A DNA stretch of 64,000 bases from an uncultured Chloroflexia bacterium (GCA_963700285.1 CAVOXA010000009.1:256001-320000); one strand, 5' to 3'; shown: positions 14,604 through 32,847, counted from the first letter of the stretch. Made by a program: numbers and translations. The notes: generated by a model from the sequence alone, not told the origin.

Positions 14604-16049
14604 TCACTGCTCCTGAACCCGATCAGGGCGCACGATCGGCGGCCTGGTCTTCCAGAAGCCTGTCGCCTGCTCAAAGGCGTGGGCTAGCTGGAGCACGCCC
14701 CAGTCATCGTGGTGCCGGCCCACGATCTGCAGACCCACCGGAAGACCCCCTTCCGTGAAGCCACAGGGTACCGAGATGGCGGGCAACCCCAAGACGCTGA
14801 TATAGTAGCAGGACTTCATCCAGTCGATATAAGTCGCCATTTCAACGCCGTTGACCTCAGTCACGTAAGGTTGGGTGACGTCAAAGGGCGGTACCTGGCT
14901 CACGGGGAAGACCATGAACTCGTACTCTTCCATGAACTGCCGGGTGCGCTGGTATAGTTCCGTGTGCTTGCGCTCCGCACGGCCGATCTGGGGGCCCGTC
15001 AGTTTTTTCCCCTCCTCGATGTTCCAGACAATGGTGTCCTTTATCTGCCCAGGGTGGCTGTCCAACAGATCTCCATAGGACAGCTCAAACTGCCAGGCTC
15101 GGAGGACTTTGAAGGCTTTGTCTGCTCCGGCGAAATCAGGCTGGGTTCGGTCGACCCGGCAGCCCAGTTCATCGAAAACCCCGCGCTGGTCCTCCAGCAC
15201 GGCTGTGACCCGTGGGTCGACGGGCAGCCCTCCGAAGTCTGGGCTCCACGCAATCTGAACACCGTGGAAATCGCGATCCAGCGGTCGCCGGAACCCCTCA
15301 CCTGATTCAGCGATGGAGATCGGGGAGCGTGGATCGGGTCCGGCCATGGCGCTGATCAGGAGGGCCGCGTCGCCCACGGTACGGGCCATCGGCCCTTGCA
15401 CGCCCAACGTTGTCCAAGCAGCCAGGCTTGGCCACGAGGGTACGCGGCCGGGAGACGGTCGGAAGCCGACCACATTGCAATAGTTGGCCGGGTTGCGCAG
15501 GGAGCCGCCCATGTCGCTGCCGTCGGCGATGGGGATCAGGCCGCAGGCCAGGGCCACTGCTGCCCCGCCGCTGCTGCCACCACAGGTCTTGGACAGGTCG
15601 TAGGGGTTTCTGGTAACGCCAAAGACCTCGTTGTAGGTCTGGGACCCCGCGCCAAACTCGGGCGTGTTGGTCTTGCCGATGGTCAGCGCCCCGGCCGCCC
15701 TGAGGCGTTCGACGATGAGGGCATCTTCCTCCGGGACAAAATCGGCAAAGATGGGTGATCCGAAGGTCGTCCGGATCCCTTTTGTGGGGATGAGATCCTT
15801 GTGCGCGATAGGCAGGCCATGCAGCGGTCCCAGGGGCTCGCCAAGCGCCACAGCCTGGTCCGCTCGATCTGCTGATTCTATGGCGTGCTCTGGCAGCAGT
15901 GTCACGATGGCATTAACCTCAGGGTTGTAGCGCTCGATCTGCTCGAGGTGCGCAACCATGACCTCGCGCGCGGACAACTCCCTCTTACTAATGGCTTGAA
16001 CCAAGTCCCGGGCGGTCATGAAGCAGATTTCCGAATTGGACACAGTCAT
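14604..16049 (-). CDS. Amidase-signature family amidase
   Basis: HGLPIAHKD, GKTNTPEF, GGSSGG, GSDMGGSLRNPA. Confidence 0.95.
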   Translation of the reverse strand: MTVSNSEICFMTARDLVQAISKRELSAREVMVAHLEQIERYNPEVNAIVTLLPEHAIESADRADQAVALGEPLGPLHGLPIAHKDLIPTKGIRTTFGSPIFADFVPEEDALIVERLRAAGALTIGKTNTPEFGAGSQTYNEVFGVTRNPYDLSKTCGGSSGGAAVALACGLIPIADGSDMGGSLRNPANYCNVVGFRPSPGRVPSWPSLAAWTTLGVQGPMARTVGDAALLISAMAGPDPRSPISIAESGEGFRRPLDRDFHGVQIAWSPDFGGLPVDPRVTAVLEDQRGVFDELGCRVDRTQPDFAGADKAFKVLRAWQFELSYGDLLDSHPGQIKDTIVWNIEEGKKLTGPQIGRAERKHTELYQRTRQFMEEYEFMVFPVSQVPPFDVTQPYVTEVNGVEMATYIDWMKSCYYISVLGLPAISVPCGFTEGGLPVGLQIVGRHHDDWGVLQLAHAFEQATGFWKTRPPIVRPDRVQEQ

Positions 16050-16173
16050 CCTCCTTCAGGCTAGAGATGATCCTGCCACGGCTTCCCTCTGGATGTTATA
16101 GCACATTCCCGGGCACAGTTCAAGTCTCAAGGGCGTTGGAACGTTAAAACGCTGAACCAGAGGGAGAGTCATC

Positions 16174-16237
16174 TTGACAACATCGGGCAGACTGGTGTAT
16201 CATTTCGATTAGTGGAATACAATTCCACTATCCGGAA
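16174..16237 (+). promoter_or_regulatory. Promoter and tandem IclR-type operator
   Basis: TTGACA-18 nt-TATCAT; perfect palindrome TAGTGGAAT-ACA-ATTCCACTA (16210-16230) formed by two 15-bp sites TTTCGATTAGTGGAA and TTCCACTATCCGGAA. Confidence 0.7.
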
Positions 16238-16295: not shown

Positions 16296-17078
16296 GTGCT
16301 CAATGCCTCGTCGGTGGCAGCCGTTGATAGATTGGTGAGAATACTGGATAGCTTTTCGGCAGAGCAGCCGGGATGGTCCCTGGCGGAGCTCAGCGCCCAC
16401 CTGCAGTTGCCAAAAAGCACGCTTCACCGCTTCCTGGTAAGTCTTGAGACCCACGACATCCTGCGTAGGAACCCCGATGACAGGCTCTGGCGCCCCGGCT
16501 ACAGGCTATTGGGCTGGGGCGAGTTGGCGGAAAAGACCATCGGCCTGAATCATCTGGCCCGGCCACTGATGAGCGAGATCGCCGCCGCCACGGGAGAAAT
16601 GGTCGTGTTGACGGTTTACTCTGGACAAGAGGCGGTCTGTACCGAAGTGATCGATGCTCGCCACTCCGTCCGGCTGGCCTTAGAGGTTGGGACGCGGCGA
16701 CCCCTCCACGCCGGCGCATCCTCCAAAATCCTCACAGCCTACCTTCCTGAGGCCGAGGTCCAGGCTGCCATCCGAGATCGGGGCCTGCCCAGGCTATGCA
16801 CCAACACCATCACAGATCTGGAGGATCTGCAGGCCGAGCTGGCGAGGATCCGCGATCTGGGGTACGCCCAGAGCCTGGAAGAAACGGACCCGGGCGCTTG
16901 GGGCATTGCTACGCCCATCTTTGACGGTGGGGGCGCTATGGTTGGCGCCATCGGAATTGCCGGACCGATCCAGCGCTATACCGAGGATCTGGCGCGGCAG
17001 TACGTTGCCCTCTGCCGGGAAGCTTGTCAGCAGGTTTCGGAACAACTTGGCGTGCGACCAGCCCCTGACGCGTCCTGA
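16296..17078 (+). CDS. IclR-family transcriptional regulator
   Basis: HTH 'LAELSAHLQLPKSTLHRFL'; 'PLHAGASSK', 'TNTITD', 'GYA..EE', 'GIATPIFD'. Confidence 0.95.
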   Translation: MLNASSVAAVDRLVRILDSFSAEQPGWSLAELSAHLQLPKSTLHRFLVSLETHDILRRNPDDRLWRPGYRLLGWGELAEKTIGLNHLARPLMSEIAAATGEMVVLTVYSGQEAVCTEVIDARHSVRLALEVGTRRPLHAGASSKILTAYLPEAEVQAAIRDRGLPRLCTNTITDLEDLQAELARIRDLGYAQSLEETDPGAWGIATPIFDGGGAMVGAIGIAGPIQRYTEDLARQYVALCREACQQVSEQLGVRPAPDAS

Positions 17079-17171: not shown

Positions 17172-18101
17172 ATGGCTGATCTTGTCGGAATGGACATTCT
17201 CGACGGTGCGCAGTTCACCCGAAACGATCTGGTGCGGATCATGGAGGTGGCTGCTGATTTCCGGCAGCAACTTGAAGAGGGACAGCCGTCAAAGCTCATG
17301 GACGGCTATGTGATGGGCTCGCTCTTTTTTGAGCCCAGCACCCGCACCCGGCTGTCCTTCGAGACCGCGATGCACCGGCTGGGCGGTGCTGTGGTGGGTT
17401 TTGCCTCGGCCGGAGTCTCTTCCACAGCCAAAGGCGAATCGCTGGAAGATACGATCCGAACCGTTGACCAGTACGTCGACATCATTGCCATGCGCCACCC
17501 CGAGATTGGTTCCGCCCGGCGGGCGGCCGCAGTTGCCGAGGCGGTGGTACTCAATGGCGGCGACGGTGCAGGCCAGCATCCCACCCAGGCCCTGTTGGAC
17601 CTGTTTACCATCGAGTCGGAATGCGGCGGGGTCGACGGCAGGACCATCGTGCTGTGTGGCGACCTGAAGAACGGCCGTACGGTGCACGCCGGGGTCGAGC
17701 TCTACAAGCACTATGACTGCAAGATGATCTTTGTAGCGCCCCAGGCACTCGGAATGCCAGCCGGCATCACCGCCAGCCTTCGGGAACAGGGCATCCTGGT
17801 GGAAGAGACGATGGAGCTCGAGCCAGCCCTGGCCGAGGCGGACGTGTTCTACATGACCCGCATTCAGAAGGAGCGCTTTGCGGACCCGGCCGAGTACGAG
17901 AAGCTCAGTGGCAGCTATATCCTGACCCGTGAGATCGTCGAGCGCGTGAACCCAGGTGTGACGGTGCTGCATCCCCTGCCGCGGGTGGACGAGATCACGA
18001 CTGACGTGGACAGCCTGCCCGGCGCAGCCTATTTCCGCCAGGCAAAGAATGGCGTCTGTATTCGCATGGCCCTGATCGCCCTGGTGCTGGGCAAGGTGTA
18101 G
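17172..18101 (+). CDS. pyrB: Aspartate carbamoyltransferase (catalytic chain)
   Basis: FFEPSTRTRLSF, KGESLEDT, HPTQALLD, GDLKNGRT, TRIQKERF, HPLPR. Confidence 0.88.
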   Translation: MADLVGMDILDGAQFTRNDLVRIMEVAADFRQQLEEGQPSKLMDGYVMGSLFFEPSTRTRLSFETAMHRLGGAVVGFASAGVSSTAKGESLEDTIRTVDQYVDIIAMRHPEIGSARRAAAVAEAVVLNGGDGAGQHPTQALLDLFTIESECGGVDGRTIVLCGDLKNGRTVHAGVELYKHYDCKMIFVAPQALGMPAGITASLREQGILVEETMELEPALAEADVFYMTRIQKERFADPAEYEKLSGSYILTREIVERVNPGVTVLHPLPRVDEITTDVDSLPGAAYFRQAKNGVCIRMALIALVLGKV

Positions 18102-18136: not shown

Positions 18137-20480
18137 ATGGACAAGCATAGATTTAACATCCTGGGCAAGGCAGCGAGGCGCAAGGACGGCGTAGCGCGGG
18201 TCACCGGCCAGGAGAAATATACGCCAGATATCAGGCTGCCGCGTATGCTCCAGGGTCGGATCTTGTCCAGCCCCTACGCCCATGCCCGCATCAAAAGCAT
18301 CGATGCCAGCGCTGCCCGAGGCGATGGGAGCTGTGGTCATCACCTGGGACGATATTCCCCACAAGCGCTACAACGAGCGCATCATCACCATTCCCTCAGT
18401 ATTACACAAAGACCACTATGTACTGGCGGACAAAGTCCGGCGCATGGGCGAGGCCGTGGCCGCTGTGGCAGCCGAGACCGAAGCCTTGGCCGAAAAAGCG
18501 ATGCGTGCCATCCGGGTCGAGTACGAGGTGCTGCCCGTCGTCACCGACCCCTTTGAAGCCATGGCGCCAGGCGCAGCGTCGATCTATGATACCATCGACT
18601 GGGGGCCCGACGAAATCAGGATCGAGAACAACATTGCCTGCCAACGCGACGTGAAAGAGGGCGATGCGGACAATGCCTTTGCCGAGGCGGACGTCGTCGT
18701 GGAGGGTCGTTTCAGCACGCAAAAGATCTACCACGCTCAGATGGAGCCCAAGTCCTGTGTCTGCCGGCCAGAGCCGGATGGCGGTCTTACCGTCTGGCCC
18801 ACGACCCAGTCGATCCACAACGTGCGCATTCTGCTGGGCGAGATTTTCGATATCCCTCTGAGCAAGATCAATGTCAAGAAGGTTCCAGTGGGTGGCACTT
18901 TTGGCTCCAGCATTCAGATGAACCCACCGATCCCCATCTGTGCGGCCCTGGCGCTCAAGGCCGGCCGGCCGGTCAGGCTCACGCTCACGCGCGAAGAGGA
19001 TGTCCACGACCACACGCGCTACGCCTCTCACATCCACCTCAAGCTGGCGGCCAAGAGCGATGGTACGCTGACCGGCGCCGAGATGGAGCTGGTGGCCGAC
19101 ATCGGCGCTCACAATATCCAGGCCTACTCTTTCCTGGGGGTCAGTGTCGGCTGGCTGGTCTCCCTGTACAAGCTGCCCAACGTATGCTACAAGGGCACAG
19201 CCGTTTACACCAACAAGGCCATCTCCTGCGCCATGCAGGGCTTTGGCAACCCCCAGGTCACCTTTGCCGCAGAATCGCTGATGGACGAGCTGGCGGACAA
19301 GCTGGGCATGGATCCGCTGACACTGCGCTTGAAGAACTATGTCGGCCTGGGTGACAGTTTCTGGGGGCAGGGGCCGCTGGTTCGCTCCATCGTACAGAGC
19401 GATGGCGTGCCCGAACTTCTGCAGCAGGGCGCGGAAGCCATCGGCTGGGATGTCCGGCCCCAGCCAGGGACCCAAACCGCTCGCCGCAGGCGGGGCATCG
19501 GCCTGGCCCGCGGCTTCCACACCTCCAGCGCTGGCGCGCCACAACCGGGCGACGTGATTGACTTTTCGGGCGCCATGGTCAAGGTGAACATCGACGGCTC
19601 CGTCGACGTCATCACGGCGTTGATGGACCACGGCGGTGGCACGCTGGAGGCCATCGCCAAGCTGGTGGCGGAGGAGTTGTGCGTGCCCCTGGACAAGGTG
19701 AACATGGCCCCGGCGGAGACCTGCTCAACCGTCTATGACTGTGTAACCCACGCCACGCGCGGCGTGTATGCTGGCGGTGGGGCGGCGGTCAAGGCGGCCA
19801 AAGAGGTGCACCAGGAATTGCTGGATACCGCTGCCCGCTACCTCAACGTCATGCCCGAAGCGCTGGCGCTGCGTCTGGACGAGGGTCTGGGGCAGAGCGT
19901 GATCTATGCCCCCTCCATGCCCGAACGGTGCATGACGTTGCAGGAACTCGCCACCCGCTGCTGGGAACAGAGCTGGAAGACCATCGCCTCGGTGGTCAGC
20001 TACCGGCCGACCAACTGCCCGCCGGCCTATGTCACGGTCTTTGTGGAAGTTGAGGTCGATACCTGGACCGGACAGGTACGGACCCTGCGGGCAGTGATGG
20101 GCAGCGACTGCGGCACGGTGGTCAACCCGGTGATGGCTGCCGGTCAACTGGAAGGTGGCCTCAGCAAGGGCGTGGGCTATGCTCTATACGAGAGCAACGA
20201 GTGGAACGCGGCTGGCCAGGTGGCCGGCGGCGGCTACTGGATCGATGCCAAGACAGCGGCCATCGGCGAGACACCCCACGTGGACGGCCTGACCATCCAT
20301 TTTGCCGATACCTACGAGCCGACTGGTCCCCATGGCGCCAAGGGGATCGGGGAGGCGGCGGCCAACCCGGTGGCGGCCGCCTACGCCAACGCCATCACCA
20401 ACGCCCTGGGAATCCGTTTCTACGAGCTACCCATCACGCCGGAAAAGATCCTGCGGGCGCTGAAAGGTGAGGAGGCTTAG
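18137..20480 (+). CDS. Xanthine dehydrogenase-family molybdopterin-binding subunit 1 (one frameshift near 18310)
   Basis: 'SPYAHARI', 'HAQMEP', 'GGTFG', 'MQGFGNPQ', 'GQLEGG', 'GAKGIGE'. Confidence 0.92.
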
Positions 20481-20509
20481 CCATGTGCCAGGAAAGCCAA
20501 GCCTATCCC

Positions 20510-21400
20510 ATGACGAACACCCACATCCTCCTGAACGAGTTTGACTATTTCGAGCCGGCCTCGCTGGCTGAGGCGTTTGCCCTGCTGGCCACGCACGGCG
20601 ATCGTGCCCAACTGCTGGCCGGCGGCTCCTATCTGCTGGTGCAGATGAAGCAGGAGCGGGCCGCGCCAGAAGTAGTGGTCAATATCAACCACGTGCATGG
20701 CTTGAGGGGCGCTGCCTGGCGCGACGACCAGCTTTGTATCGGTGCGCTTGCGACGATTCGTGAGACTCACAGTTTGCCAGTGGTACAATCCGGCTACCAG
20801 GCACTGGCCGAAGCCTGCGCTGCCTTTGGCTCGATGCAGATCCAGATGATGGGTACCCTTGGCGGGAACGTGTGCAACGGCTCACCTGCCTCCGACGCCG
20901 TGCCTGCGCTGATGGCCTTGGACGCGCGACTGGTGCTGGCCAGCCAAGGAGGGGAGCGCACTCTTCCGCTGTCCCAATTCTTGCTGGGCCCAGGCAGGAC
21001 CGCTCTGCGGGCCGGCGAGGTGCTGTCTCACGTATTGCTGCCCAAACCAGAGCAGGGAACGGGCAGCGCTTTCATCAAGCTTGCACGCGTGGCCGCCGAT
21101 CTGGCCAAGGTGAATGCCGCGGCTGTCGTCGTCCGTGACGGCGACTAGGATCAAGGACTGCAGAGTAGCCTTTGGTTCTGTGGCCCCTACGGTCATCCGG
21201 GCGGTCGAAACAGAGGCTTTCCTGCATGGCAAAGCCTTCAGCCCGGATCTGGCACTGGCCGCCGGCAAAGTCGCCATGGGCGAGATCACGCCCATTGACG
21301 ACGTGCGCTCCACGGCTTGGTACCGCCGCGAGGTGACCAGGGCGGTCACGTATGATCTTCTGATGGCGGCCTGGGATCGTGCAGCCGAGGAAAGGCCCAG
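20510..21400 (+). CDS. Xanthine dehydrogenase-family FAD-binding subunit 1 (frameshift near 21146; possibly fused to the following 2Fe-2S domain)
   Basis: 'LAGGSYL', 'QIQMMGTLGGNVCNGSPASD', 'PIDDVRSTAWYR'; 3' end uncertain. Confidence 0.8.
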
Positions 21401-21987
21401 CAGTGGACGGGGCGCTGGCCAGTACGCCGGTGGGTGTGGCCAAAACCCTGCGCTCAGGACGGCCCGGGCTGCAGGCCGCGGCGGGCGAACAGATGCCGCT
21501 GACGCTGCGGGTGAACGGCGAACAACATCATGCCTGGGTGACCCCCAATGACCTGCTGCTCAACGTATTGCGAGAAGACTTGGAATTCACCGGTCCCAAG
21601 TATGGCTGCGGCATTGGCGAGTGCGGCGCGTGTACCGTGTTGCTCAACGGCCGGCCGGCCCTTGCCTGTCTCACGCTGGCGCTGGCGGCCGATGGAGCCG
21701 AGGTGGTGACGGTCGAAGGCCTCCAGGCCGCCGATGGGGCCTTGCACCCTCTGCAGGAGGCTTTCCTCGATCACCAGGCTTTCCAGTGCGGCTACTGCAC
21801 GCCCGGTATCCTGATGATGTCCAAGACGCTGTTGGATGATATCCCGGTACCGGACGAGGACGACGTACGCGATTACCTGCGCGGCAATCGTTGCCGGTGT
21901 ACCGGTTTCGCCAGCATTGTCCGCGCTGTTCTGAGCAGCGTACAACAACCGCATGGCGCGCTACCGGATATTGGGCGCCAGGATTAG
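21379..21987 (+). CDS. 2Fe-2S subunit 1 (CoxS/XdhC type)
   Basis: GCGIGECGACTV...C, QCGYCTPG, CRCTG. Confidence 0.9.
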   Translation: MQPRKGPAVDGALASTPVGVAKTLRSGRPGLQAAAGEQMPLTLRVNGEQHHAWVTPNDLLLNVLREDLEFTGPKYGCGIGECGACTVLLNGRPALACLTLALAADGAEVVTVEGLQAADGALHPLQEAFLDHQAFQCGYCTPGILMMSKTLLDDIPVPDEDDVRDYLRGNRCRCTGFASIVRAVLSSVQQPHGALPDIGRQD

Positions 21988-22003
21988 GATATTGGAGGGT
22001 TCA

Positions 22004-22874: not shown

Positions 22875-23375
22875 ATGACACCGAAACTGGTAGCACTCAA
22901 CGTAAACGGCCGGACGCACCACGTCGCCCTCGAGCCTCACATTACCTTGCTGCGGGCCTTGCGCGAGCTTGGCTACACCGATGTGAAGAACGGCTGCGAA
23001 AAAGGTGAATGCGGGGCCTGCGCCGTGCTCCTGGATGGCGCTGCAGTCAACAGTTGCCTGGTGCTGGCTTGGCAGGCCGACGGTGTAGAGATCGTGACCA
23101 ACGCTGGGCTGGGGACGATGGATGCCCCCCACCCATTGCAGAAAGCCTTCGCCGACCACGGCGCGGTCCAGTGCGGTTATTGCACGCCTGGCATGATCGT
23201 CTCTGCCAAGGCATTGCTGGATCGAGAGCCAGATCCAAGTGAGGAGGAGATCCGCGAGGCGCTCTCAGGCAATCTCTGTCGCTGTACCGGCTATGGGCAG
23301 ATCTTTGAGGCGGTCAGGGTTGCCGCAGCCGAGATCCGGTCAGACACGGCTCGGTACGAGAAGGGAGGTGCATGA
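22875..23375 (+). CDS. 2Fe-2S subunit 2 (CoxS/XdhC type)
   Basis: GCEKGECGAC, QCGYCTPG, GNLCRCTGY. Confidence 0.95.
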   Translation: MTPKLVALNVNGRTHHVALEPHITLLRALRELGYTDVKNGCEKGECGACAVLLDGAAVNSCLVLAWQADGVEIVTNAGLGTMDAPHPLQKAFADHGAVQCGYCTPGMIVSAKALLDREPDPSEEEIREALSGNLCRCTGYGQIFEAVRVAAAEIRSDTARYEKGGA

Positions 23376-25765
23376 TGGAGGCACGATACAGGGCCAAGCC
23401 ACTCCCGCCCGTCAATCTGCCGGAACTCCGCCAGGTGGGCAAACCTTTGCGCCGGATAGATGCCATGGGCAAGGCGGTGGGTCACACCACCTATGCCGGT
23501 GATTATTCCATGCCCAACATGCTCCACGCCAAGGTTCTCCGCAGCACCGAGCCGCATGCCCGGATCGTGTACCTGGATGTAAGCCGGGCTGCTGAGTTGC
23601 CGGGTGTGGCCTGCGTGCTCACAGCCGCCGATATGGAAAACGCCGGAAAACTCACCACCGATCTGCCGGGCCAGACCGGGCAGCAGCGACGGGCCGGCTC
23701 CGACGCTCAGGTGCTGGCGGCCGAGATCGTCCGTTTTATGGGTGAACCCATCGCTCTGGTGGCGGCCGAGACCGTCGAGATTGCCGAGCAAGCGCTGAGA
23801 CTGATCGAGGTCGAGTATGAGCCCCTGCCCGGTGTGTTTGACCCTCACAAAGCACTCGAGCCCGGCGCCCCCGTGATCTACGAGCCGGATAACCTGGTCG
23901 CCAGGTGGAAGATCCGCCGGGGGGATGTGGACAAGGGCATGGCGGCGGCCGACTTGATCGTAGAGAACACCTTCCGGGTCCCCTTCCAGGACCATGCCTA
24001 CATCGAGCCTGAAGCGGGCCTGGCCTGGGTGGATGGGCAGGGTGTGATTAACATCCGGGTCTGTACCCAGGTGGTGGAGCATTTCCGCAGCATCGCTCGC
24101 GCTTTGGGGGTACCCCAGAATAAGATCCGTGTGCGCGGAACGCTGCTGGGTGGCGGCTTTGGTGGCAAGGAGGATATCACGGTAGAGATCTTTTTGGCGC
24201 TTCTTGCTCAAAAGACCGGCCAACCAGTCCGCCTGGCCTACACCCGTGAGGAGTCCTTGATCGGCCATTCCAAACGCCATCCCTTCACCATCACCCATCG
24301 TACCGGCGTGCAGCGCAATGGCCGGCTAACGGCGGCTGAGATCAAGCTGGTGGCTGATTCGGGCGCCTATCCCTACCTCAGCCCCTACGTCCTGCTCTAC
24401 GCTACGGCCATGTCCAGCGGCCCGTACCGCATTCCTCACCTCAAGGTCGATGGCTATGCGGCTGCCACGAATCAGACATTCGCCAGCGCCTTCCGTGGCT
24501 TTGGCGGTCCGCAGGCCTGCTTTGCCTATGAGGGTCAGATGGACGCCATCGCCGAGGCGCTGAACATGGACCCTCTGGAGTTGCGCAAGATCAACTACCT
24601 GCACACGGGCGATCCCATCGCCACCGGACAGGTCATTGACAGCGCGGCTTGGCTGGAAGAGACGGCAAGCCGCGCGCTGGCAGCCCTGGGGGAAAAGACG
24701 CCCAACCACGGCCCGGTCAAGACGGGCTGGGGCTTTGCGTCCTATTTTCAGTCGTATGGCCGCATAACCTGGATGCACGATACCAGCCGCGCCTGGGTAG
24801 GTCTGGAACTGGATGGCACGGCCGTGATCCGCAGCGGTGTGCCGGACCTGGGTGCGGGACAGATCAACACCCTGGCCCAGATCACGGCCGAGATCCTGGG
24901 CGTGTCGCTGCACGACATCACCGTATACAGTACCGACTCGGCCGTGACACCGCTGGCCGGTACCTCCACAGCTACCCGGCAACTCTACATGTCCGGCAAC
25001 GCGGTGAGCATGGCGGCCAACGCCGTCCGGCAGGTACTGCTGGAGCGGGCACAGAGGCATTTTGAGGAGGAAATCGAGGATCTGGACCTGGCCGATGGGC
25101 GGGTGTTCGTCAAGGGCGATCCGGACCAGTCGATGCCGCTTAGCGAACTGGCGGCGATCTGTGCCGCCGAGGGGCTGGAGCTGTCCAATCTAGCCCAATT
25201 CAATGCTCCCTTTACCGGCCCGCTGGACCCCGAGACCGGCCAGGGGCGGATCTGGCCTGATTTCACCTTCGGCGCCCATGCCGTGGAGGTGGCCGTGGAT
25301 ATGGAGACCGGCCAGGTGGATATCCTCAAGAGCATCGGCTGCCACGACGTGGGCCGGGCCATCAACCCCGATGCCTGCGAGGGCCAGATCGTCGGCGGTG
25401 CACACCAGGGCCTGGGCTACGCCATGTTGGAAGGATACCGCATGAAAGAGGGGCGGGTTGTTACGCCATCGCTGGCCGAGTATCTCCTCCCCACTGCCGT
25501 AGACTTTGTGCCCAGCCAGGCCATCATCCTGGAATCGGGTACCGGCAAAGGGCCGTTTGGTTCGAAAGGGATCGGTGAACCAGCCCTGACACCAGCCGCA
25601 GCGGCTGTGGCAAACGCTGTCGCCGACGCGGTTGGAGCCCGTGTCTACGAGCTGCCGCTGACGCCCGAGCGGGTGTTGGCGGCTATCGATCAGGCCCAGT
25701 CCGGCCAGCTCTGGCACAAAAAACGGGGCGAACCCAGCGCAGAAGTCCCATCCGACCCTCAGTAA
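23372..25765 (+). CDS. Xanthine dehydrogenase-family molybdopterin-binding subunit 2
   Basis: 'HAYIEPE', 'GGGFGGKE', 'AFRGFGGPQ', 'DLGAGQ', 'SKGIGEP'. Confidence 0.95.
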   Translation: MMEARYRAKPLPPVNLPELRQVGKPLRRIDAMGKAVGHTTYAGDYSMPNMLHAKVLRSTEPHARIVYLDVSRAAELPGVACVLTAADMENAGKLTTDLPGQTGQQRRAGSDAQVLAAEIVRFMGEPIALVAAETVEIAEQALRLIEVEYEPLPGVFDPHKALEPGAPVIYEPDNLVARWKIRRGDVDKGMAAADLIVENTFRVPFQDHAYIEPEAGLAWVDGQGVINIRVCTQVVEHFRSIARALGVPQNKIRVRGTLLGGGFGGKEDITVEIFLALLAQKTGQPVRLAYTREESLIGHSKRHPFTITHRTGVQRNGRLTAAEIKLVADSGAYPYLSPYVLLYATAMSSGPYRIPHLKVDGYAAATNQTFASAFRGFGGPQACFAYEGQMDAIAEALNMDPLELRKINYLHTGDPIATGQVIDSAAWLEETASRALAALGEKTPNHGPVKTGWGFASYFQSYGRITWMHDTSRAWVGLELDGTAVIRSGVPDLGAGQINTLAQITAEILGVSLHDITVYSTDSAVTPLAGTSTATRQLYMSGNAVSMAANAVRQVLLERAQRHFEEEIEDLDLADGRVFVKGDPDQSMPLSELAAICAAEGLELSNLAQFNAPFTGPLDPETGQGRIWPDFTFGAHAVEVAVDMETGQVDILKSIGCHDVGRAINPDACEGQIVGGAHQGLGYAMLEGYRMKEGRVVTPSLAEYLLPTAVDFVPSQAIILESGTGKGPFGSKGIGEPALTPAAAAVANAVADAVGARVYELPLTPERVLAAIDQAQSGQLWHKKRGEPSAEVPSDPQ

Positions 25766-25774: not shown

Positions 25775-27142
25775 GTGGTGGAGATAAAGTACGATCTATT
25801 GTTCGCCGGCGGTACGGTGGTCACTGGCCAGGGCATGCAGCTGGCCGACGTGGGGGTCTGGGGAGAAAAACTGGCAGCCATCGGCCGGGATCTGCCTCAA
25901 GAGGCAGCCAGGGAGGTCATTGACGCCAGTGGCAAGTACATCCTGCCAGGCGCTATCGATGTGCACGTGCACCCTGTCTATCTCGACAGCGTGGAGCACT
26001 GTTCTGCCCTGGCCGCTTATGGCGGAACCACGACCGTGATCCATTTTGCCTACGCTCGTACCGGAGAAAGCTTGCTGGACAAGGTCGAGGAGATGAGGGC
26101 GGACGGGTTGGCCAACTCCCGGCTGGACTTTGGCCTTCATGGTGGCATGTTTGAGGCTCCCCGTCAAGTGCCCGAGATCCCAAAAGTGATGGATCTGGGC
26201 GTCCGCTCGTTCAAGTTCTTCCTGACCTACCTCAAGCAGGGCTGGTACACCGATGACTACCAGTTGATCAAGGCCATGGATATCCTGGCAGAACAGGGTG
26301 GCATGGCCATGGTCCATGCTGAGAACGGCGGCGCCATCGATTACCTGGAAGACAAATACCTGAAGGGCCCGGGGGCATCGGCCCGTTACTTTAATGCTTC
26401 CCGGCCTGCCGCACTGGAGGAGGAAGCTGCTTTCCGCTCGATCCGCCTGGCAGAGCTTGTAGATTGCCCGCTGTACATCGCTCACGTAACCTCGGCGCGG
26501 ACGGTTGACCTTATCCGCCGCGAGCAGGCTGCCGGACGCAAGGTCTTTGCCGAGACCTGTCCTCAATACCTGACCCTTACCCAAGAGATCATCGAGGAGC
26601 GTGGGGCGCTGGCCAAGATCGGGCCGCCCATCCGATCGGCCGCTGACCGTGACGCGATATGGGCCGGCCTGAGGGATGGCACGCTGCAAGCAGTCTCTTC
26701 GGATCACGCGGCCAAGGCCAAAGATGTGAACGGCGATTTCCTGGAGCAGGGTTTTGGCTCGCCGCAGATGGAAACGCTCCTGCCGCTGGTATACGATGGC
26801 GGCGTGAATCGGGGCCGGATCAGCCTGGTCCGGCTGGTTCAAGTGCTGTGCGAAAACCCGGCCCGCATCTTTGGTCTCTACCCGCGCAAGGGTACTCTGG
26901 CCATCGGCTCGGACGCCGACTTGGTGGTTTTGGATCCCAACCACGAGTTCACCATTCGCTCAGAGAACCAGCACTCGAAGGCTGGCTATACCTTGTACGA
27001 GGGACGTACGGTTCTGGGTTGGCCAGAGATGTCCTTCCAGCGCGGGCAGCCCGTCCTCTGGCAGGGGCAGGTGGTAGCGAAACCCGGCGGTGCCCATTTC
27101 CTGCCGGTACAGCCAGCCCAAATCGAACCACTGACCGTCTGA
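25775..27142 (+). CDS. Cyclic amidohydrolase (dihydropyrimidinase/hydantoinase/allantoinase family)
   Basis: PGAIDVHVH, GGTTT, SFKFF (carboxylated Lys), HAEN, HVT, ETCPQYL, SDHA, GSDADLV. Confidence 0.92.
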   Translation: MVEIKYDLLFAGGTVVTGQGMQLADVGVWGEKLAAIGRDLPQEAAREVIDASGKYILPGAIDVHVHPVYLDSVEHCSALAAYGGTTTVIHFAYARTGESLLDKVEEMRADGLANSRLDFGLHGGMFEAPRQVPEIPKVMDLGVRSFKFFLTYLKQGWYTDDYQLIKAMDILAEQGGMAMVHAENGGAIDYLEDKYLKGPGASARYFNASRPAALEEEAAFRSIRLAELVDCPLYIAHVTSARTVDLIRREQAAGRKVFAETCPQYLTLTQEIIEERGALAKIGPPIRSAADRDAIWAGLRDGTLQAVSSDHAAKAKDVNGDFLEQGFGSPQMETLLPLVYDGGVNRGRISLVRLVQVLCENPARIFGLYPRKGTLAIGSDADLVVLDPNHEFTIRSENQHSKAGYTLYEGRTVLGWPEMSFQRGQPVLWQGQVVAKPGGAHFLPVQPAQIEPLTV

Positions 27143-27168
27143 CTCGAATCACGGCTGTTTCGCATACC

Positions 27169-27197: not shown

Positions 27198-27213
27198 GTA
27201 ACTGGAGGAACAC

Positions 27214-29081
27214 TTGGAACCAAAGATACTCACCGGAAGCGAAGCGTTGGCCATGGGCGCGCTGCGCGCCGGGGTGAAGGTCGTGACAGGCTACCCCGGC
27301 ACGCCATCTACCGGAGCCATTGACCAGCCTGCTCAAGATGGACTTGCCGGACCGCCACGTGGAGTGGAGTACCAACGAAAAGGTAGCCTTTGAGATTGCC
27401 GCCGGGGCGGCTTGGGCCGGCCAGCGGGCAATGTGTACCATGAAGATGTCGGGGGTCAACGTGGCCTACGACTCACTGATCTCCATCGCCTATTCCGGCG
27501 TCAATGGCGGTCTGGTAATCTATGTAGCCGACGATCCTGGCGTGAGCGCGGGTATGTGCGAGCAGGATACGCGCGGTTTCGCGCTTATGAGCGACCTGCC
27601 CATCCTAGAACCGGCCACGGTGGCAGAGGCCTACGAGTTGGTCCCGGTGGCCTTTGATCTCTCCGAGCAGACCGGCACCCCGGTCTTTGTCCGCTTGGTG
27701 ACGGCGCTGGCCAACTCATACGCGTCCGTGACCGTGGAGGAGCCCCTGCCTCCCGCCCTTCGCGAGCCGATTCTTGAGCGCGACATCGCCAAGTACACCA
27801 AGGCTGGTTCGCTCATCTGCCTGAACCAGCACCGCGACCTGATAGCACGCCTGGCAAAGTCGGCGGCAATCATCGAGCAGATGGGCATCAACCGGCTGCG
27901 CCTCGCGGAAAATGCTGGTGGGTTGGGCGTCGTGGCCGCTGGGGTGGTCAACTCCTACCTGGAAGAGGGTTTTGAGGTTACGGCCGAGTATGGTTCTGAC
28001 CGCGAGGCTGTCTCGGTACTAGAGGTCCGGGCCAGCCACCCGTTCCCGGCTCGTCAGGTGCAAGAGCTTCTGGCCCACTGTGGCGTCATCCTGGTACTGG
28101 AGGAGCTAGAGCCGTACCTGGAGCAGGGTGTGATCATGGAAGCCCAGCGGGCTGGCTTTGAAGGGCGTGTCGTGGGCAAGCTGGATGGGCCACTCAGCCG
28201 ACTGGGCGAATACGGCCTCAAGCAGGTAGTGGAGGGGCTGGCGGAGGCGCTGGATCTCTCGATCCCGCCAGGCCTGTTCCAGGGAAGCATAGAGGCGGAG
28301 ACCCTGGCCGCCGCCCGGCCCATCACCGTCTGCGCCGGATGCCCGCACCGCGGAACCTACCTGGCCATCAACCGGGCCTTGAGAAGACTGCGGTTCAAAA
28401 AGGACGAGGTGATGGTGACCGGCGACATCGGCTGCACCATCCTGGGTATGAACCCGCCCTTTGACACGGTCTGGAACGAGGTCTCGATGGGGGCCAGCAT
28501 CAGCCTGGCCCAGGGCTATGTCCACGGCGGCGTCGAGACCCCGGTCATTGCCACCATCGGCGATTCTACCTTCTTCCATGGCGGCATCCCGGGGCTGATC
28601 AACGCTGTGCAACACCAGGTTCCACTGACCCTCATCATCATGGACAACGGCTGGACGGCCATGACCGGTATGCAGGTCAACCCCGGTACGGCCGGTGCAT
28701 TCCAGTCTGGCGGGCAACAGGTGGATATCGCCAGGATCATCCCGGCGCTGGGCGTTGAGCACTTTTTTGAGATCGACCCCTTTGACCTGGCTGGCTCCGC
28801 AGCGGCGATCCAGGAGGCCCTGACCCTGCCCAGGGTCAAGGTGATACTGGCCCGGCAGGAGTGCGCTATCCAGTCCGTCCGGCACGGCGACCAGGCCGGC
28901 CTTGTCCAGGTCGATGCCGAAAAGTGCAACCTGTGCAAGCTGTGCATCATCCAGACCGGCTGTCCGGCTATTGATATCGGTCGAAGATACCATCGTGATC
29001 GATCCCAGCCTGTGCGACGGCTGCGGGCTGTGTGCGGAGGTATGTAACTTGGACGCCATCGTGAAAGAGCCAGCGCCATGA
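27214..29081 (+). CDS. iorA: Indolepyruvate:ferredoxin oxidoreductase alpha subunit (frameshifts near 27320 and 28980)
   Basis: TTG start behind GGAGG; 'GYPGTPST', 'NEKVAFE', 'DDPG', 'CAGCPHR', 'GDIGC', 'GDSTFFH', C-terminal CxxCxxC ferredoxin motifs. Confidence 0.88.
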
Positions 29082-29664
29082 AATTCGACCTGTATCTGGT
29101 TGGGGTAGGCGGCCAGGGTGTCCTGACCATCGGTGACGTCATCACGGAAGCGGCGCTGGGCTCGGGGATTCCAGCCAACTTTTATCCGACCAAAGGGATG
29201 GCCCAGCGCGGCGGTTTTGTCAAGGCTCAGGTGCGGTTGGGCCGCGCGATGGTGGGACCGCAGATCCCCGAGAAGGGCGCGGACCTGGCCATTGCCATGG
29301 AGCTTTCAGAATCGCTGCGGGCGGTGCGCTTTGTCAGGCCCGGCGGCGAATTTGCTGCTCTTTGGGCACGTGTGGCAGCCCACAGCCGTCATGCTGGACA
29401 AGGCGCCCTATCCTGGCCTGGAGGCCGTCGAGGAACAGGCAGCGGCCGCGGAGATCAGTCCTTCACTACCTTGACCCGGCGGGCGTACCGGTGCTCGATG
29501 GAAGGCCCGTCCCGGCCAATGTGTACGTGTTGGGCGCTGCCCTGGGCTTGACACGCCTGGGAAATGTGCTGGACCCCGCCGCGGTGGAGGAACTGGTCGT
29601 CTCCCGCTGGAAACGCGGCGTGGAAGCCAACCGGCTGGCATTCCGGGCCGGGCTAGAGGCTTAG
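29078..29664 (+). CDS. iorB: Indolepyruvate:ferredoxin oxidoreductase beta subunit (frameshifted)
   Basis: 'GVGGQG', 'GMAQRGG', 'ANVYVLGA', 'NRLAF..G'. Confidence 0.85.
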
Positions 29665-31723
29665 ATGGGCCTGCAGAGTCTGTTCTACCCGCGCGGGGTG
29701 GCCGTCATCGGATCTACGTCCCTGGGAAAACTGGGCTACCAGCTCATCCGCCAGTTGCAGGACGGTGGCTATCGGGCCGTGTACGCGGTGAACCCGACGG
29801 GCAAAGGGCTACCCGCAGACCAGGACCAGGCTGCCGTGCCAGGCTTTGCATCCATGATACAGATCGGCCCGCCCGTGGACCTGGCGGTGATCGTCTCTCC
29901 TACAAGTACCGTGCCGGCTGTGCTGGAGGATTGTGGTCGGGCGGGGATCAAGGCGGCCGTCATTATCACGGCCGGCTTCTCCGAGGTAGGCAATCACGCC
30001 GGAGAGGCGGAGGTGGCGCGTGTGGCACGGCAGTACGACATCCGCTTCGTAGGCCCCAACTGCGCTGGCATTGTCAACACGCTTCACAAGCTGACCCCCA
30101 CACTGGAGACCCTGCCGCCTGCTGGGAAGTGTATCGCTTATCGCCCAGAGCGGTGCCGTGGGTGGTGTGGTATTGGCCTGGGCCAAGGAATTCGGACTGG
30201 GCATCTCCAAGTTTGTGAGCTATGGCAACGGGGCGGACCTGCGCGAAGTCGAGTTGTTGCGCTACCTGGCCGGCGATCCGGACACGGACGTGGTGGCGCT
30301 GTACATCGAGAGCGTCAGCGACGGTCGAGCGTTCATGGAGGCAGCCCAGTACTGTACCCGGCACAAGCCCCTGCTGGTTATCAAATCCGGCCGGACCGAA
30401 TCGGGGCAGCGGGCGACCCTGTCCCATACCGGCTCGATGGCTGGTGCGGATGCGGTGTACGATGCGGCGCTGCAGCAGTGTGGGGCCATCCGTGTGCAAA
30501 CAGTGGAGGAGCTGTTTGACGCTTGCAAGGCCTTCAGCGTTCTGCCGCCGCTGGATGGCGACCGGGTTGTTATTGTGACCAATTCTGGCGGTCCGGGGGT
30601 GATGGCGGCGGATTGGGCGGAGGAGATTGGGCTGGACGTGGCCGAACCGAGTTCGATGGGCCAAGCTCGGCTTGCCGAGTTCCTGCCCCCCCACTGCGCC
30701 TTCAAGAATCCGGTGGACCTGACCGTCGAGGGCACCGAAGACGGCTATCGCCGGGCGCTATTGGCCCTGCTCGAAGAATATGACGCCGCGCTGGCCCTGA
30801 ATATCGCCCCGGCCTACCTTGACTCGGTGTCGCTGGCGCGTGGCGTCTGCGACGCGGCCAAAGGGAGCGGGAAGCCGGTCGCGGCGGCCTTTTTGCCTGC
30901 CCAGATCGTCAAGGATGCGCTGCCCTACCTGGAATCGCGGGGGATTCCCAGTTTTGCCACTGGAGAGCGGGCGGTGAGCGCGCTTGGTCACATGGCCCGT
31001 CACCAGGCCCGGCAGAAGGCTTGGCGGCAACCGCCAAGCCCTGACCCCGAACAACAGATCCCCGGACTCCTTCCTGGCTCGGTGCAGATGTTGGAACACG
31101 AGGCGATGGACTGGCTGAAGGCCAATGGGTTCCCCGTCCCGGACTATTGCTTTGCAGCCACGGCGGAAGGTGCTCTCCAGGGATGCCGCGAGATCGGTTA
31201 CCCGGTGGTGATGAAGGTCGTTTCGCCTGATATCCTGCACAAATCCGACGTGGGTGGGGTGGTCTTGCATGTCCAGGATGGCGCCGCGGCGGAAGCTGCG
31301 TTCTCCCGACTGCGCGACGCGGCCGCCGGCAAGGATTTTCGCGGCGTTGTCATCTACCCCATGCTCCAGGGGGCGCAGGAAGTCCTGCTGGGCCTTTCAA
31401 GGGACCCCCAGTTCGGCCCGGTAGTGGCCTGTGGCCTGGGCGGCGTCTATACCGAAGTCTGGCAGGATATCGCGTTGCGGGTGGCGCCGGTGGATACTCA
31501 GGAGGCCGGAGACATGATCAGAGAGCTCAAGTCGTTGCCCCTGCTTCAGGGTACGCGCGGCAAGCTTCCCTGCGACTTGGGTGCCCTGGCCGGCGTACTG
31601 GCCGAATTCTCTCAACTACCCTTCCGCTACCCGGATATCAGTGAGGTCGATCTCAACCCGGTCTTTGTCTTCCCCGAAGGGATTGTGGTGGGAGACGTAC
31701 GAATCATCAACAGGAGCAAGTGA
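29665..31723 (+). CDS. ADP-forming acyl-CoA synthetase (acetate--CoA ligase family, fused alpha/beta; frameshift near 30135)
   Basis: 'VAVIGST', 'GPNCAG', 'SYGNGAD', 'SHTGSMAG', 'NSGGPG', 'NPVDLT', ATP-grasp 'HKSDVGGV', 'DLNP'. Confidence 0.92.
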
Positions 31724-31725
31724 CT

Positions 31726-32847
31726 ATGGCATCCAAGGTCAAACCCCAACCAGGATTGAAGAACTTGCGACCCTACGTACCCGGTACACCCATAGAGGAT
31801 GTTCAGCGCCAGTATGGCCTCAAGGATGTCATCAAGCTGGCATCCAATGAAAACCCCTTTGGCTCCTCGCCCAAGGCCCTCGAAGCGATCCGCCAGGCGC
31901 TGCCCCGGCTCAACCAATACCCTGACTCCGGATGCCATGCACTCCGCCACGCCCTGGCAACAGCCCTCCAGGTGGATCCAAAACAGCTTGTCGTCGGCAA
32001 CGGCGCCGATGGTGTCATCACCCAGATCTGTATGGCCTATCTGGATGAGAGAAGCCAGGTCATTGCCAGCAAGTCCTCCTTTCCAAATCACGAGCGCTTC
32101 ACCCACATCATGCGGGCCCAGCTCACCAAGATCCCCCTCAAGAACCACAGGTTGGACCTGGAGGCCATGGCGGACGCTATCACAGAAAGAACCACGCTGG
32201 TTTTTGTCTGCAACCCCAACAATCCGACCGGCACCATCGTCACCGCCAACCAGGTTGAAGCCTTCATGGAGCGGGTTCCGGATCACGTGCTGGTGGCCTT
32301 TGACGAAGCTTACTACGAACTGGTCGATTCCGATGAATACCCGGAGACGATAGCCTACATCCGCGAGGGCCGCGAGAATGTTATCCTGCTGCGGACCTTT
32401 TCCAAGGTCTATGGCTTGGCCGGTATCCGGCTGGGCTATGGTGTTGCCATGCCCAGCGTACTGGCCCCCATGAACCAGGTCAAGGACTCCTTTCCGGTGA
32501 ACCAGCTTGCTCAGGTAGCAGGGATCGCGGCCCTGCAGGACCAGGAATTCCTGCAGAGAACTGTGCAGGCCAACCATGCATCCCGGCTGTGGTTGTACGA
32601 GCAGTTTGAACGGCTGGGTCTCTCCTATGTTGAGAGCCACACCAACTTTGTGTTGTTTCATATCGGTCCCCATGCCCTCGACATCCAGCAGGAACTCCTG
32701 AAGCAAGGCGTGATCATTCGCCCCTGCGACGGCTACGATCTCTGTGATTGGCTCAGGGTGACGGTCGGTACGCCTGAACAGGACGCCCGCTTCATCGAGA
32801 CACTGGAGAGCGTGCTCGAGATCCTCCCGGAGGATTCTGGCATATAG
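31726..32847 (+). CDS. hisC: HisC-family (class I/II) PLP aminotransferase (histidinol-phosphate/aromatic type)
   Basis: KLASNENPFG, CNPNNPTG, DEAY, LRTFSKVYGLAGIRLGY, RVTVG. Confidence 0.85.
   Translation: MASKVKPQPGLKNLRPYVPGTPIEDVQRQYGLKDVIKLASNENPFGSSPKALEAIRQALPRLNQYPDSGCHALRHALATALQVDPKQLVVGNGADGVITQICMAYLDERSQVIASKSSFPNHERFTHIMRAQLTKIPLKNHRLDLEAMADAITERTTLVFVCNPNNPTGTIVTANQVEAFMERVPDHVLVAFDEAYYELVDSDEYPETIAYIREGRENVILLRTFSKVYGLAGIRLGYGVAMPSVLAPMNQVKDSFPVNQLAQVAGIAALQDQEFLQRTVQANHASRLWLYEQFERLGLSYVESHTNFVLFHIGPHALDIQQELLKQGVIIRPCDGYDLCDWLRVTVGTPEQDARFIETLESVLEILPEDSGI

Follow-up and report, generated by a model that had tools for sequence, protein, structure and literature searches.

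What would an anaerobe degrade with an operon that joins an aspartate carbamoyltransferase (ATCase) to two molybdenum hydroxylases, a cyclic amidohydrolase and an amino acid fermentation module? Such a locus lies in a 64,000-nucleotide stretch of DNA (the window, as analysed in full) from an uncultured Chloroflexia bacterium (genome G000), and a first-pass annotation had read it as a single catabolic unit with substrate-level ATP formation. The locus was characterized by its gene content and order, conservation, residue patterns and co-occurrence. We conclude that the operon probably encodes an undescribed, O2-independent route of histidine catabolism; literature searches returned no description of this route.

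For every step of the route we infer the substrate and the direction of flux. The aminotransferase would convert histidine to imidazolepyruvate, IorAB would convert this to imidazoleacetyl-CoA, and the ADP-forming ligase (ACD) would release imidazole-4-acetate with the gain of one ATP. Two Mo-dependent hydroxylations would follow, both with water-derived oxygen: the first at C2 of imidazole-4-acetate by the large subunit MoL2 and the second by MoL1, yielding hydantoin-5-acetate. The cyclic amidohydrolase would open the latter to N-carbamoyl-aspartate, which ATCase would split into aspartate and carbamoyl phosphate, and a second ATP would be obtained from carbamoyl phosphate by a carbamate kinase encoded elsewhere. 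Imidazole-4-acetate (C5H6N2O2) plus two oxygens gives hydantoin-5-acetate (C5H6N2O4), which opens to N-carbamoyl-aspartate. Since two added oxygens suffice, no reductase is needed, which fits the scarcity of PyrD-like genes (found at none of 30 Chloroflexota Mo loci and at one of 18 long archaeal loci). The first-pass annotation had noted the lack of a carbamate kinase near the operon; none is present in the window, and two are encoded elsewhere in the genome (C1:205124 and C1:1699141).

ORF and profile checks of the window confirmed a tightly packed operon, with all previously named genes in place and on their strands. The plus strand carries, in this order: (i) an IclR-family regulator (16296..17078; orthologs 39-65%, the first gene of the cluster in relatives); (ii) ATCase (17172..18101; TIGR00670, 351 bits, cut-off 237); (iii) Mo hydroxylase 1, composed of MoL1 (18137..20480) and fused FAD and 2Fe-2S parts (20483..21987); (iv) Mo hydroxylase 2, composed of FAD (21953..22870), 2Fe-2S (22875..23375) and MoL2 (23372..25765) subunits; (v) a cyclic amidohydrolase of its own subfamily (25775..27142); (vi) the alpha (IorA-type; 27202..29078) and beta (IorB; 29078..29664) subunits of a 2-oxoacid:ferredoxin oxidoreductase (IOR); (vii) ACD, a fused alpha-beta ADP-forming acyl-CoA synthetase (29665..31723); and (viii) a subfamily I-beta (HisC/ArAT-type) aminotransferase (31720..32847; TIGR01141, 343 bits, cut-off 277). 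Compared with intact orthologs, the window contains eight frameshifts: one in MoL1 (near 18318), two in FAD1-FeS1 (a single fused gene in relatives), two in iorA, two in iorB and one in acd (near 30124). At no fewer than five of the eight places (18318, 27322, 28983, 29458 and 30124; at least these) the extra base is absent from contigs of related sediment strains, so the frameshifts are likely assembly errors. The divergent amidase-signature enzyme (PRK07486 subfamily; 14604..16049, minus strand), earlier counted as part of the unit, adjoins the cluster only in this genome and its congener G652 among the relatives' loci compared, and was placed outside the conserved unit.

A sigma-70-like promoter match (16174..16203, plus strand; 11 of 12 consensus bases) is weak taken alone, as four such sites were found in the region against 4.2 expected. 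Directly 3' of its -10 box lies a perfect palindrome with 9-bp arms (16210..16230), likely the IclR operator. The palindrome core is single-copy in the genome. A similar motif precedes iclR in five relatives (G652, G401, G405, G502 and G738) and a looser pattern matched two more, six of the 13 relatives' regions being without any.

The cluster is conserved as a unit in Anaerolineae, occurs in many Chloroflexota and is partly conserved in archaea. In a panel of 52 genomes, iorA orthologs (threshold at least 60%) were found in 17, every one of which also belongs to the 20 genomes containing a MoL1 ortholog, and in none of the 32 others; this co-occurrence holds even where the modules lie apart. 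Conservation and co-occurrence thus support the single catabolic unit with substrate-level ATP formation. Among 18 archaeal MoL1 loci, 10 hold a cyclic amidohydrolase (29-34% like the window version) and an ATCase (40-48%), and eight are without the pair nearby; such non-orthologous pairs appear to have been recruited beside MoL1. PEP carboxykinase, a further point in favour of the proposed route, adjoins cluster genes in G401, G405, G1062 and G934.

All three enzyme types of aminotransferase-IOR-ACD fermentation are encoded in the operon. Intact relatives score below the equivalog cut-offs for IorA (559 of 651) and ACD alpha (456 of 567). IorAB is predicted to act on imidazolepyruvate, ACD to convert imidazoleacetyl-CoA to imidazoleacetate with ATP formation, and the aminotransferase to be a histidine aminotransferase. 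The aminotransferase pocket (D97/F121/N123/F258) does not separate histidine from phenylalanine or tryptophan and shows Phe at both places where aromatic aminotransferases typically have it; that of biosynthetic HisC is hydrophilic (Asn/Tyr/Met/Tyr; PMC4703992). Precedent for the first half of the route is offered by the histidine aminotransferase and imidazolylacetate-specific ligase described for Thermococcales (PMC9986279; PMC3942289).

Both Mo sets have the L/FAD/FeS subunits, Mo-site Gln and catalytic Glu (GIGE) of the xanthine oxidase family, and in MoL1 orthologs Gln occupies the position that is usually Arg of xRGFG. Neither large subunit reached the equivalog cut-offs for XdhA, PucD, 4-hydroxybenzoyl-CoA reductase or CO dehydrogenase, the best scores being 442 of 780 for MoL1 (from an ORF about 60 N-terminal residues short) and 550 of 784 for MoL2, whose best PDB matches are 4-hydroxybenzoyl-CoA reductase and nicotinate dehydrogenase. 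In the tree, MoL1 shares a clade (support 100/100) with a Streptomyces Mo subunit encoded adjoining nnhA on plasmid NZ_CP109164.1. The Streptomyces NnhA matches (E 5e-238) the solved enzyme PDB 9azg, which makes imidazol-2-one (PMC11659421); the plasmid carries nnhA a second time, with genes for hydantoinase, M20 carbamoylase and XdhC after it. The nnhA link comes from a single plasmid, with identity of about 41%. MoL1 is predicted to hydroxylate (2-oxo-imidazolyl)acetate to hydantoin-5-acetate, and MoL2 is predicted, by elimination, to be the imidazole-4-acetate C2 hydroxylase; the second Mo subunit of the archaeal loci is not a MoL2 ortholog.

The amidohydrolase is predicted to hydrolyse hydantoin-5-acetate and is possibly also the cell's dihydroorotase. 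It has the metal ligands H64, H66, K147, H181, H237 and D310, scores 387 bits (cut-off 393) with the dihydropyrimidinase/D-hydantoinase model TIGR02033, has a first specificity loop that is 7-8 residues shorter, and does not reach the NCBIfam cut-offs for ErtD, a hydantoin-5-propionate amidohydrolase (237 of 650 and 221 of 600). Its active-site lysines K154, K314 and K316, invariant in 120/120 homologs, would suit a carboxylate substrate. The invariant substrate-binding Arg, Asn and His that mark dihydroorotases (PMC9771888) are absent, with HVHP, HFAY and DHAAK at those places. All three are present in the archaeal partner enzymes (HxHxR, MPN/HPN, DHAPH and a GPTTG loop), whose top profile score is to allantoinase. 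These archaeal residues favour a six-membered route, which we consider unlikely, in which the Mo enzymes would make orotate from a pyrimidine-4-carboxylate-type compound, a PyrD acting in trans would reduce the orotate and a true dihydroorotase would feed ATCase in reverse. It would agree with pyrD/pyrK in one archaeal locus (G934, between transporter genes), with pyrD elsewhere in G000 and with the depletion of housekeeping pyrC (Anaerolineae-type pyrC in 4/28 genomes with a close amidohydrolase vs. 15/20 without), but it is opposed by the lack of a reductase at the 30 Chloroflexota loci, the missing triad in the window enzyme, the allantoinase scores in archaea and the imidazolone-linked member of the MoL1 clade. 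Moreover, aminotransferase, IOR and ACD yield a ring-acetate, not a ring-carboxylate, and we know of no abundant natural source of pyrimidine-4-carboxylate-type compounds.

Histidine as the substrate is consistent with the distribution of the hut pathway. Urocanase (hutU) occurs in 4 of the 17 iorA genomes vs. 29 of the 35 others, an anticorrelation seen among kin, and hutU matches were found in 13/13 cluster-negative members of the G000 family. Neither HutH nor HutU was found in G000 (89% complete); in family f11, hut is present in three of five cluster genomes. The retention of hut in four cluster genomes would also suit a modified histidine (ring-methylated histidine, hercynine or ergothioneine) as main substrate, demethylated by MttB/corrinoid proteins and degraded by the same chemistry, with histidine secondary. 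One MttB subfamily (71-78% alike) is encoded within or next to the cluster in G402, G406, G502, G579 and G627, a third Mo set lies near it in G406, G579 and G627, and G587 has corrinoid and methyl-THF transferase genes. This variant is nevertheless quite unlikely: MttB is absent from G000 and most cluster loci, hut is missing in most cluster genomes, which fits histidine itself, and the Mo-dependent ergothioneine synthase belongs to a different family (DMSO reductase).

The last step of the histidine route depends on ATCase, which contains STRT, K84, R105, HPTQ, R167, R229, Q231 and HPLPR (numbers and roles following E. coli ATCase), with intact carbamoyl phosphate and aspartate pockets. K84, R167, R229, Q231 and HPLPR are kept in 16/16 Chloroflexota and 8/8 archaeal cluster ATCases aligned. 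Family score and conserved pockets point to a true aspartate carbamoyltransferase, predicted to work phosphorolytically, although genomic context points both ways on direction. The first-pass annotation stated that its reading would fall if the genome had no other pyrB, pyrC or hisC and the cluster were not conserved as a unit, or if the cluster matched a characterised pathway. The cluster ATCase is indeed the only pyrB found in G000 (as in five archaea checked), and no canonical pyrC was found there, whereas the cluster aminotransferase is a second copy beside a separate hisC in the his operon, and the cluster is conserved. The sole pyrB, the missing canonical pyrC and the archaeal dihydroorotase residues leave room for a pyrimidine role. 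As N-carbamoyl-aspartate is also a pyrimidine precursor, genomes without the housekeeping pair probably also use ATCase and the amidohydrolase as their pyrB and pyrC.

The same gaps, the persistence of the ATCase-amidohydrolase pair in G498 and G661, which have no Mo or IOR orthologs, and the scattered modules of family f97 would be expected if a housekeeping pair were merely co-located with an aryl amino acid fermentation module and unrelated Mo enzymes. We regard this as very unlikely, since in several families the two genes sit on either side of the Mo sets, under a single IclR and with no pyrD, pyrE/F of G000 lie on another contig, non-orthologous pairs stand beside MoL1 in archaea, a carbamoylase takes the place of ATCase in three genomes, and IOR orthologs are found strictly together with MoL1 orthologs.

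At six loci, a 53-56% paralog of the amidohydrolase is accompanied by a hydantoin/allantoin racemase; these loci have IOR and ACD yet lack a MoL1 ortholog. The racemase, like the carbamoylase in place of ATCase, favours the histidine route; the missing MoL1 ortholog speaks against it. Although these loci (IOR, racemase, amidohydrolase, aminotransferase, ATCase, ACD and once carbamate kinase) resemble a hydantoin-utilisation operon and the aminotransferase has its two Phe residues, we regard as highly improbable a sequence in which oxidation and opening of a heterocycle yield an N-carbamoyl aryl amino acid that loses its carbamoyl group before the aminotransferase, IOR and ACD ferment it, given the unchanged ATCase pocket in all aligned copies, racemase loci included, and the invariant lysines suited to a carboxylate. 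With a complete aspartate pocket the released amino acid should be aspartate rather than an aryl one on which IOR would act; this disfavours the order first proposed (ring, carbamoyl transfer, transamination, IOR, ACD), while the alternative in the same annotation, side chain first and then ring, fits and points to histidine.

Parts of the histidine route resemble known systems. The aerobic imidazoleacetate pathway of Pseudomonas also leads from imidazole-4-acetate to aspartate: a flavin monooxygenase forms imidazoloneacetate, which is converted via formimino-aspartate to aspartate. Unlike the proposed route, it needs O2, and C2 leaves as formate or formamide with no formation of carbamoyl phosphate. 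Orotate fermentation, reportedly studied by Lieberman and Kornberg in 1954, likewise interconverts N-carbamoyl-aspartate with dihydroorotate and 5-carboxymethylhydantoin (by dihydroorotase and carboxymethylhydantoinase), but without Mo enzymes or an amino acid module; to our knowledge, carboxymethylhydantoinase has no known gene. Aldehyde oxidase oxidises imidazolonepropionate. Side routes of ergothioneine and histidine via hydantoin-5-propionate (ErtD, ErtE; NCBIfam) also lead from imidazole through a 5-substituted hydantoin to an N-carbamoyl amino acid, but are one carbon longer (Glu as product) and are entered by a lyase and a hydratase. In 2-nitroimidazole degradation by actinobacteria (NnhA) and at the NZ_CP109164.1 nnhA loci, where gene context suggests the role of the Mo enzyme, a MoL1-clade Mo enzyme, hydantoinase and carbamoylase are grouped around imidazol-2-one; the ring there is unsubstituted and entered via nitro hydrolysis (PMC11659421). 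Thermococcales histidine fermentation (TK0548; imidazolylacetyl-CoA synthetase TK2127) employs the same trio of enzyme types and is proposed to reach imidazole-4-acetate and ATP by the same side-chain steps; the sections of these reports available to us do not follow the acid further and name no oxidoreductase for the histidine keto acid (PMC9986279; PMC3942289). Unlike there, a single operon in the window combines the three genes with others for ring oxidation and ring opening. The reductive urate (2,8-dioxopurine) pathway (xdhD-ygfK-ssnA-hyuA-ygeW-yqeA-ygeY-ygeX) shares a Mo enzyme, cyclic amidohydrolase, phosphorolytic transcarbamylase (replaceable by a carbamoylase) and carbamate kinase, but is reductive and needs YgfK, SsnA, YgeX and YgeY (PMC12507026). 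SsnA, YgfK/UacX, YgeX, YgeY and a YgeW-type transcarbamylase were not found among the operon ORFs, and G000 has a separate reductive-urate-type cluster (C1:1678000-1705000; ORFs and HMM matches).

Jointly, and tentatively, these results may add a third route of histidine breakdown, independent of O2, that operates in Chloroflexota and archaea and probably in further sediment anaerobes, an uncharacterised Mo-hydroxylase subfamily converting imidazol-2-ones to hydantoins, and a gene for carboxymethylhydantoinase. A canonical ATCase would run backwards for ATP, and histidine-derived carbamoyl-aspartate could, through a dual hydantoinase/dihydroorotase, supply pyrimidines without carbamoyl-phosphate synthetase.

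All genes named in the first-pass annotation, i.e., iclR, an ATCase gene, two molybdenum (Mo) hydroxylase sets, a cyclic amidohydrolase gene, iorA, iorB, acd and a HisC-type aminotransferase gene, are present in the order stated there. The host genome (G000; 7.05 Mb, 89% complete) carries the window on contig C9. Comparison with intact orthologs revealed 8 frameshifts in the window. Since the extra base is absent at no fewer than 5 of the 8 sites in contigs of related sediment strains, and iorA, iorB and acd are all intact in a metagenome contig at 90% identity, these were treated as assembly errors. In relatives, one fused gene encodes both the FAD and the FeS subunit of Mo set 1. A sigma-70-like site and a palindrome with 9-bp arms (16210-16230) lie upstream of iclR, and a terminator scan gave chance-level hits only. 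Elsewhere in the window, glutamate synthase-like and DEAD/DEAH helicase-like genes (positions 5021-10288 and 11171-13761; labels assigned by eye) are split into several ORFs, probably by assembly frameshifts of the same kind, and positions 34406-37006 encode an 866-aa PEP-utilizing protein, which we take to be rifampin phosphotransferase/PEP synthase-like.

The gene set is conserved within Chloroflexota. Mo set 1 is located directly downstream of the ATCase gene in all 8 closest loci among the best 80 ATCase loci kept, and a phylum-wide ATCase search of 401 genomes found no cluster-type copy besides that of G000. The Mo, amidohydrolase, iorA, iorB and acd genes are consecutive in genomes G652, G738, G464, G502, G627, G671, G691 and G408, and occur together in changed order in G711; hisC is next in line in G652, G627, G691, G408, G711 and G587. 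Separate loci carry the Mo-ATCase genes, the amidohydrolase gene and the ior genes in one genome family (f97), with their co-occurrence retained. Of the 401 genomes searched in the class, 32 have close amidohydrolase homologs (E ≤ 1e-120). A non-random panel of 52 genomes was assembled from these positives plus the 20 negatives that came first in the list (13 from the family of G000); of the 52, 20 encode orthologs (≥60%) of the large subunit of Mo hydroxylase 1 (MoL1) and 17, every one within these 20, encode IorA orthologs (≥60%). The latter were also found in 8/8 further genomes (G401-G408, one a duplicate of G615). Orthologs of the second large subunit (MoL2) were looked for within the fetched loci. 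A 66%-identical amidohydrolase gene (L101:9992-11353) stands on a metagenome contig without other cluster genes.

Judged from sequence, we favor with moderate confidence the view that the cluster encodes an oxygen-free histidine route, leading through imidazole-4-acetate, hydantoin-5-acetate and N-carbamoyl-aspartate to aspartate and carbamoyl phosphate. The aspartate pocket of the ATCase is complete in 24 of 24 aligned cluster copies, with motifs as in PDB 1ml4 and with residues that presumably have the roles we ascribe to them; as the whole pocket is kept, the partner substrate should be N-carbamoyl-aspartate. To our knowledge, two rings open to this compound: dihydroorotate and hydantoin-5-acetate. 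The aminotransferase, IorAB (IOR) and the ADP-forming acyl-CoA synthetase (ACD) would convert ring-CH2-CH(NH2)-COOH into ring-CH2-COOH and, by our own reasoning, we know of no common amino acid other than histidine that yields a ring acetate convertible to hydantoin-5-acetate. The step from imidazole-4-acetate to hydantoin-5-acetate would, on the same reasoning, take just two oxygens, as many as there are Mo enzymes, without any reductase. Every part of the cluster comes from a known family, and the pathway logic is like that of other Mo-hydroxylase heterocycle routes. A precedent for the side-chain half comes from Thermococcales (PMC9986279, PMC3942289), and no description of the proposed route was found in the main texts of open papers and preprints.

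The cluster aminotransferase belongs to subfamily I-beta and has a pocket whose residues point neither to histidine nor to aromatic substrates in particular, and both Mo large subunits score below curated cut-offs. The amidohydrolase, encoded by an intact gene at 25775-27142, is by sequence comparison a subfamily of its own: it is devoid of the dihydroorotase triad (substrate-binding Arg, Asn and His), scores just below the D-hydantoinase cut-off, and contains K154, K314 and K316, invariant in 120/120 homologs, with K314 at the carboxylate-binding His position. Its single-sequence AlphaFold model was unusable (pLDDT 39), an ESM Atlas search returned generic dihydropyrimidinase clusters only, and its plasmid homologs (~40%) proved to be ordinary dihydropyrimidinases. 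No clue to a ligand came from the binding protein of the associated ABC transporter. A link to the Mo-dependent ergothioneine synthase was rejected, as that enzyme belongs to a different family.

Among plasmid homologs of MoL1, the best (40.5%; next 35.8%) is encoded, with FAD and FeS subunits, in Streptomyces sp. NBC_01727, where it adjoins nnhA, whose product matches the solved 2-nitroimidazole hydrolase. The product of that hydrolase is imidazol-2-one, which, according to PMC11659421, a paper silent on neighboring genes, the host metabolizes fully. Plasmid NZ_CP109164.1 has two identical nnhA copies (L290:6801-14121 and L291:12001-17877), one beside a permease-like gene and the MoL1-clade Mo enzyme, the other followed by genes for a hydantoinase, an M20 carbamoylase and XdhC, which makes it a candidate for a complete route from 2-nitroimidazole via imidazol-2-one and hydantoin to glycine. 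The Streptomyces subunit shares the motifs TQSIH, GFGNPQ, FHTSG and YDVVT-HA with MoL1. A 21-row tree of chosen sequences puts both in one group, at 100/100, together with the archaeal and deltaproteobacterial relatives of MoL1; the closest named relatives of the Streptomyces subunit occur in Pseudonocardia, Amycolatopsis, Lentzea and Mycobacterium. This one plasmid suggests that the MoL1 clade may oxidize imidazol-2-ones to hydantoins, which would place MoL1 at the second hydroxylation step. Upstream of the G401 cluster lies an ADI/DDAH-fold gene (L001:4222-5253) that has no more than 24% identity to NnhA and was kept only as a lead, with five homologs of greater distance in G785; its product possibly acts on a 2-substituted imidazole.

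Neither hutH nor hutU, the genes of the Hut histidine pathway, was found in G000 (89% complete). Matches to hutU occurred in 4 of 17 genomes with Mo and IOR genes versus 29 of 35 others (naive Fisher p 5e-5, overstated because kin are not independent), in agreement with hutH, as well as in 1/5 further Chloroflexota cluster genomes and 0/5 archaea. Genomes G652, G671 and G691 (L255, L256 and L257) carry a divergent-type hutH-hutU pair (~600 vs. ~900 bits); at the G652 site, the flanking genes are kept in G000 and hutH-hutU is absent. Genes for PEP carboxykinase, a second aminotransferase, and malate-racemase-like or Ldh_2 proteins recur near the cluster, in line with aspartate as the product. 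An N-carbamoylase takes the place of the ATCase after the Mo sets and amidohydrolase in G625, G763 and G781; PMC12507026 describes the same swap, of YgeW and UacY, in urate catabolism. Running the ATCase in reverse is uphill and requires the pull of a carbamate kinase, a limit shared by YgeW (PMC12507026). On contig C1, G000 has a separate purine-type cluster that encodes a carbamate kinase and two transcarbamylases. By our reasoning, about 8 electrons are freed per histidine, and an electron sink is therefore needed.

Of the separate housekeeping copies that the first-pass annotation proposed to look for, hisC was found in its own his operon (C1) and pyrB was not, the cluster ATCase being the sole pyrB found; other G000 carbamoyltransferases are <30% alike to it. 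G000 pyrD and pyrE/F lie on contig C10. No carB was found in G000; this gene is patchy (7/32 vs. 6/20 genomes of two groups, 0/9 in a separate search) and uninformative. No Anaerolineae-type pyrC was detected in G000 with a single query, which divergent dihydroorotases could escape, and a dihydroorotase motif scan of this genome yielded nothing convincing. One C10 amidohydrolase scores barely above the broad TIGR00857 cut-off but is without the Arg, Asn and His.

MoL1 orthologs (50-56%) occur in 19 of 401 genomes in the phylum of a Bathyarchaeota record. Among the 18 archaeal loci fetched (one partial match was left out), 10 contain a cyclic amidohydrolase gene together with an ATCase gene (two of the latter edge-cut) inside the fetched stretch and 8 do not. 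In the archaeal amidohydrolases the dihydroorotase triad is present, as is the loop, yet their top family is allantoinase, and the cluster ATCase is the sole ATCase in 5/5 archaea checked. In the G934 locus (L329:35-14318), pyrK-pyrD is inserted in the ABC-transporter operon between the MoL1 and ATCase genes, and a divergent dihydroorotase-like gene occurs with an aminotransferase gene. Housekeeping pyrC was found in 4/28 genomes with the close amidohydrolase versus 15/20 negatives, and G498 and G661 keep the ATCase and amidohydrolase genes with Mo and IOR absent. For these reasons (archaeal triad, sole ATCase, pyrD/pyrK of G934, pyrC depletion, G498 and G661), the pair probably serves pyrimidine synthesis, at least partly. 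Hydantoinases commonly accept both ring sizes, and the pair is therefore read as having a dual role. The archaeal triad and the G934 locus also fit a second reading, in which the substrate of the whole cluster may be a six-membered ring; against this, a PyrD-like gene is present in 0/30 Chloroflexota Mo loci (1/18 long archaeal loci). Histidinol dehydrogenase-family genes lie near the MoL1 gene in two archaeal loci (L320:5421-6668 and L325:1757-3067). Action on methylated histidines, with demethylation, is possible, given that five cluster genomes carry genes of one MttB subfamily.

Several related loci were observed. In six genomes (L241, L243, L253, L263, L265 and L224), the companions of the cluster are MttB-subfamily genes, genes for corrinoid proteins and methyl-THF transferase, and a third Mo set. 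Loci L228-L232 and L234 combine iorAB, a hydantoin/allantoin racemase, an amidohydrolase paralog (53-56%) and an aminotransferase, mostly with ATCase and ACD and once with carbamate kinase; no MoL1 ortholog was found in these genomes, where hut is present. Parallel clusters in L274 (G444:C47) and L275 (G413:C19) contain iorAB, Mo sets, a HisC-type aminotransferase, CoA transferases and an acyl-CoA dehydrogenase (with a B12 mutase in L274), presumably resembling anaerobic tryptophan/indoleacetate degradation.

Four of the cluster enzymes are soluble and easily expressed, which makes the histidine route directly testable. If true, it would (i) assign reactions to two uncharacterized Mo-hydroxylase subfamilies, (ii) provide a candidate gene for the carboxymethylhydantoinase activity of 1954, (iii) put a canonical ATCase to catabolic use and (iv) fill, by prediction, the gap that follows NnhA in azomycin degradation. 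Imidazole-4-acetate, the Thermococcales histidine product and a histamine metabolite, would gain an anaerobic fate, and one of the 20 proteinogenic amino acids would have a new catabolic route, in peptide-fermenting sediment bacteria and archaea, most of them without Hut.
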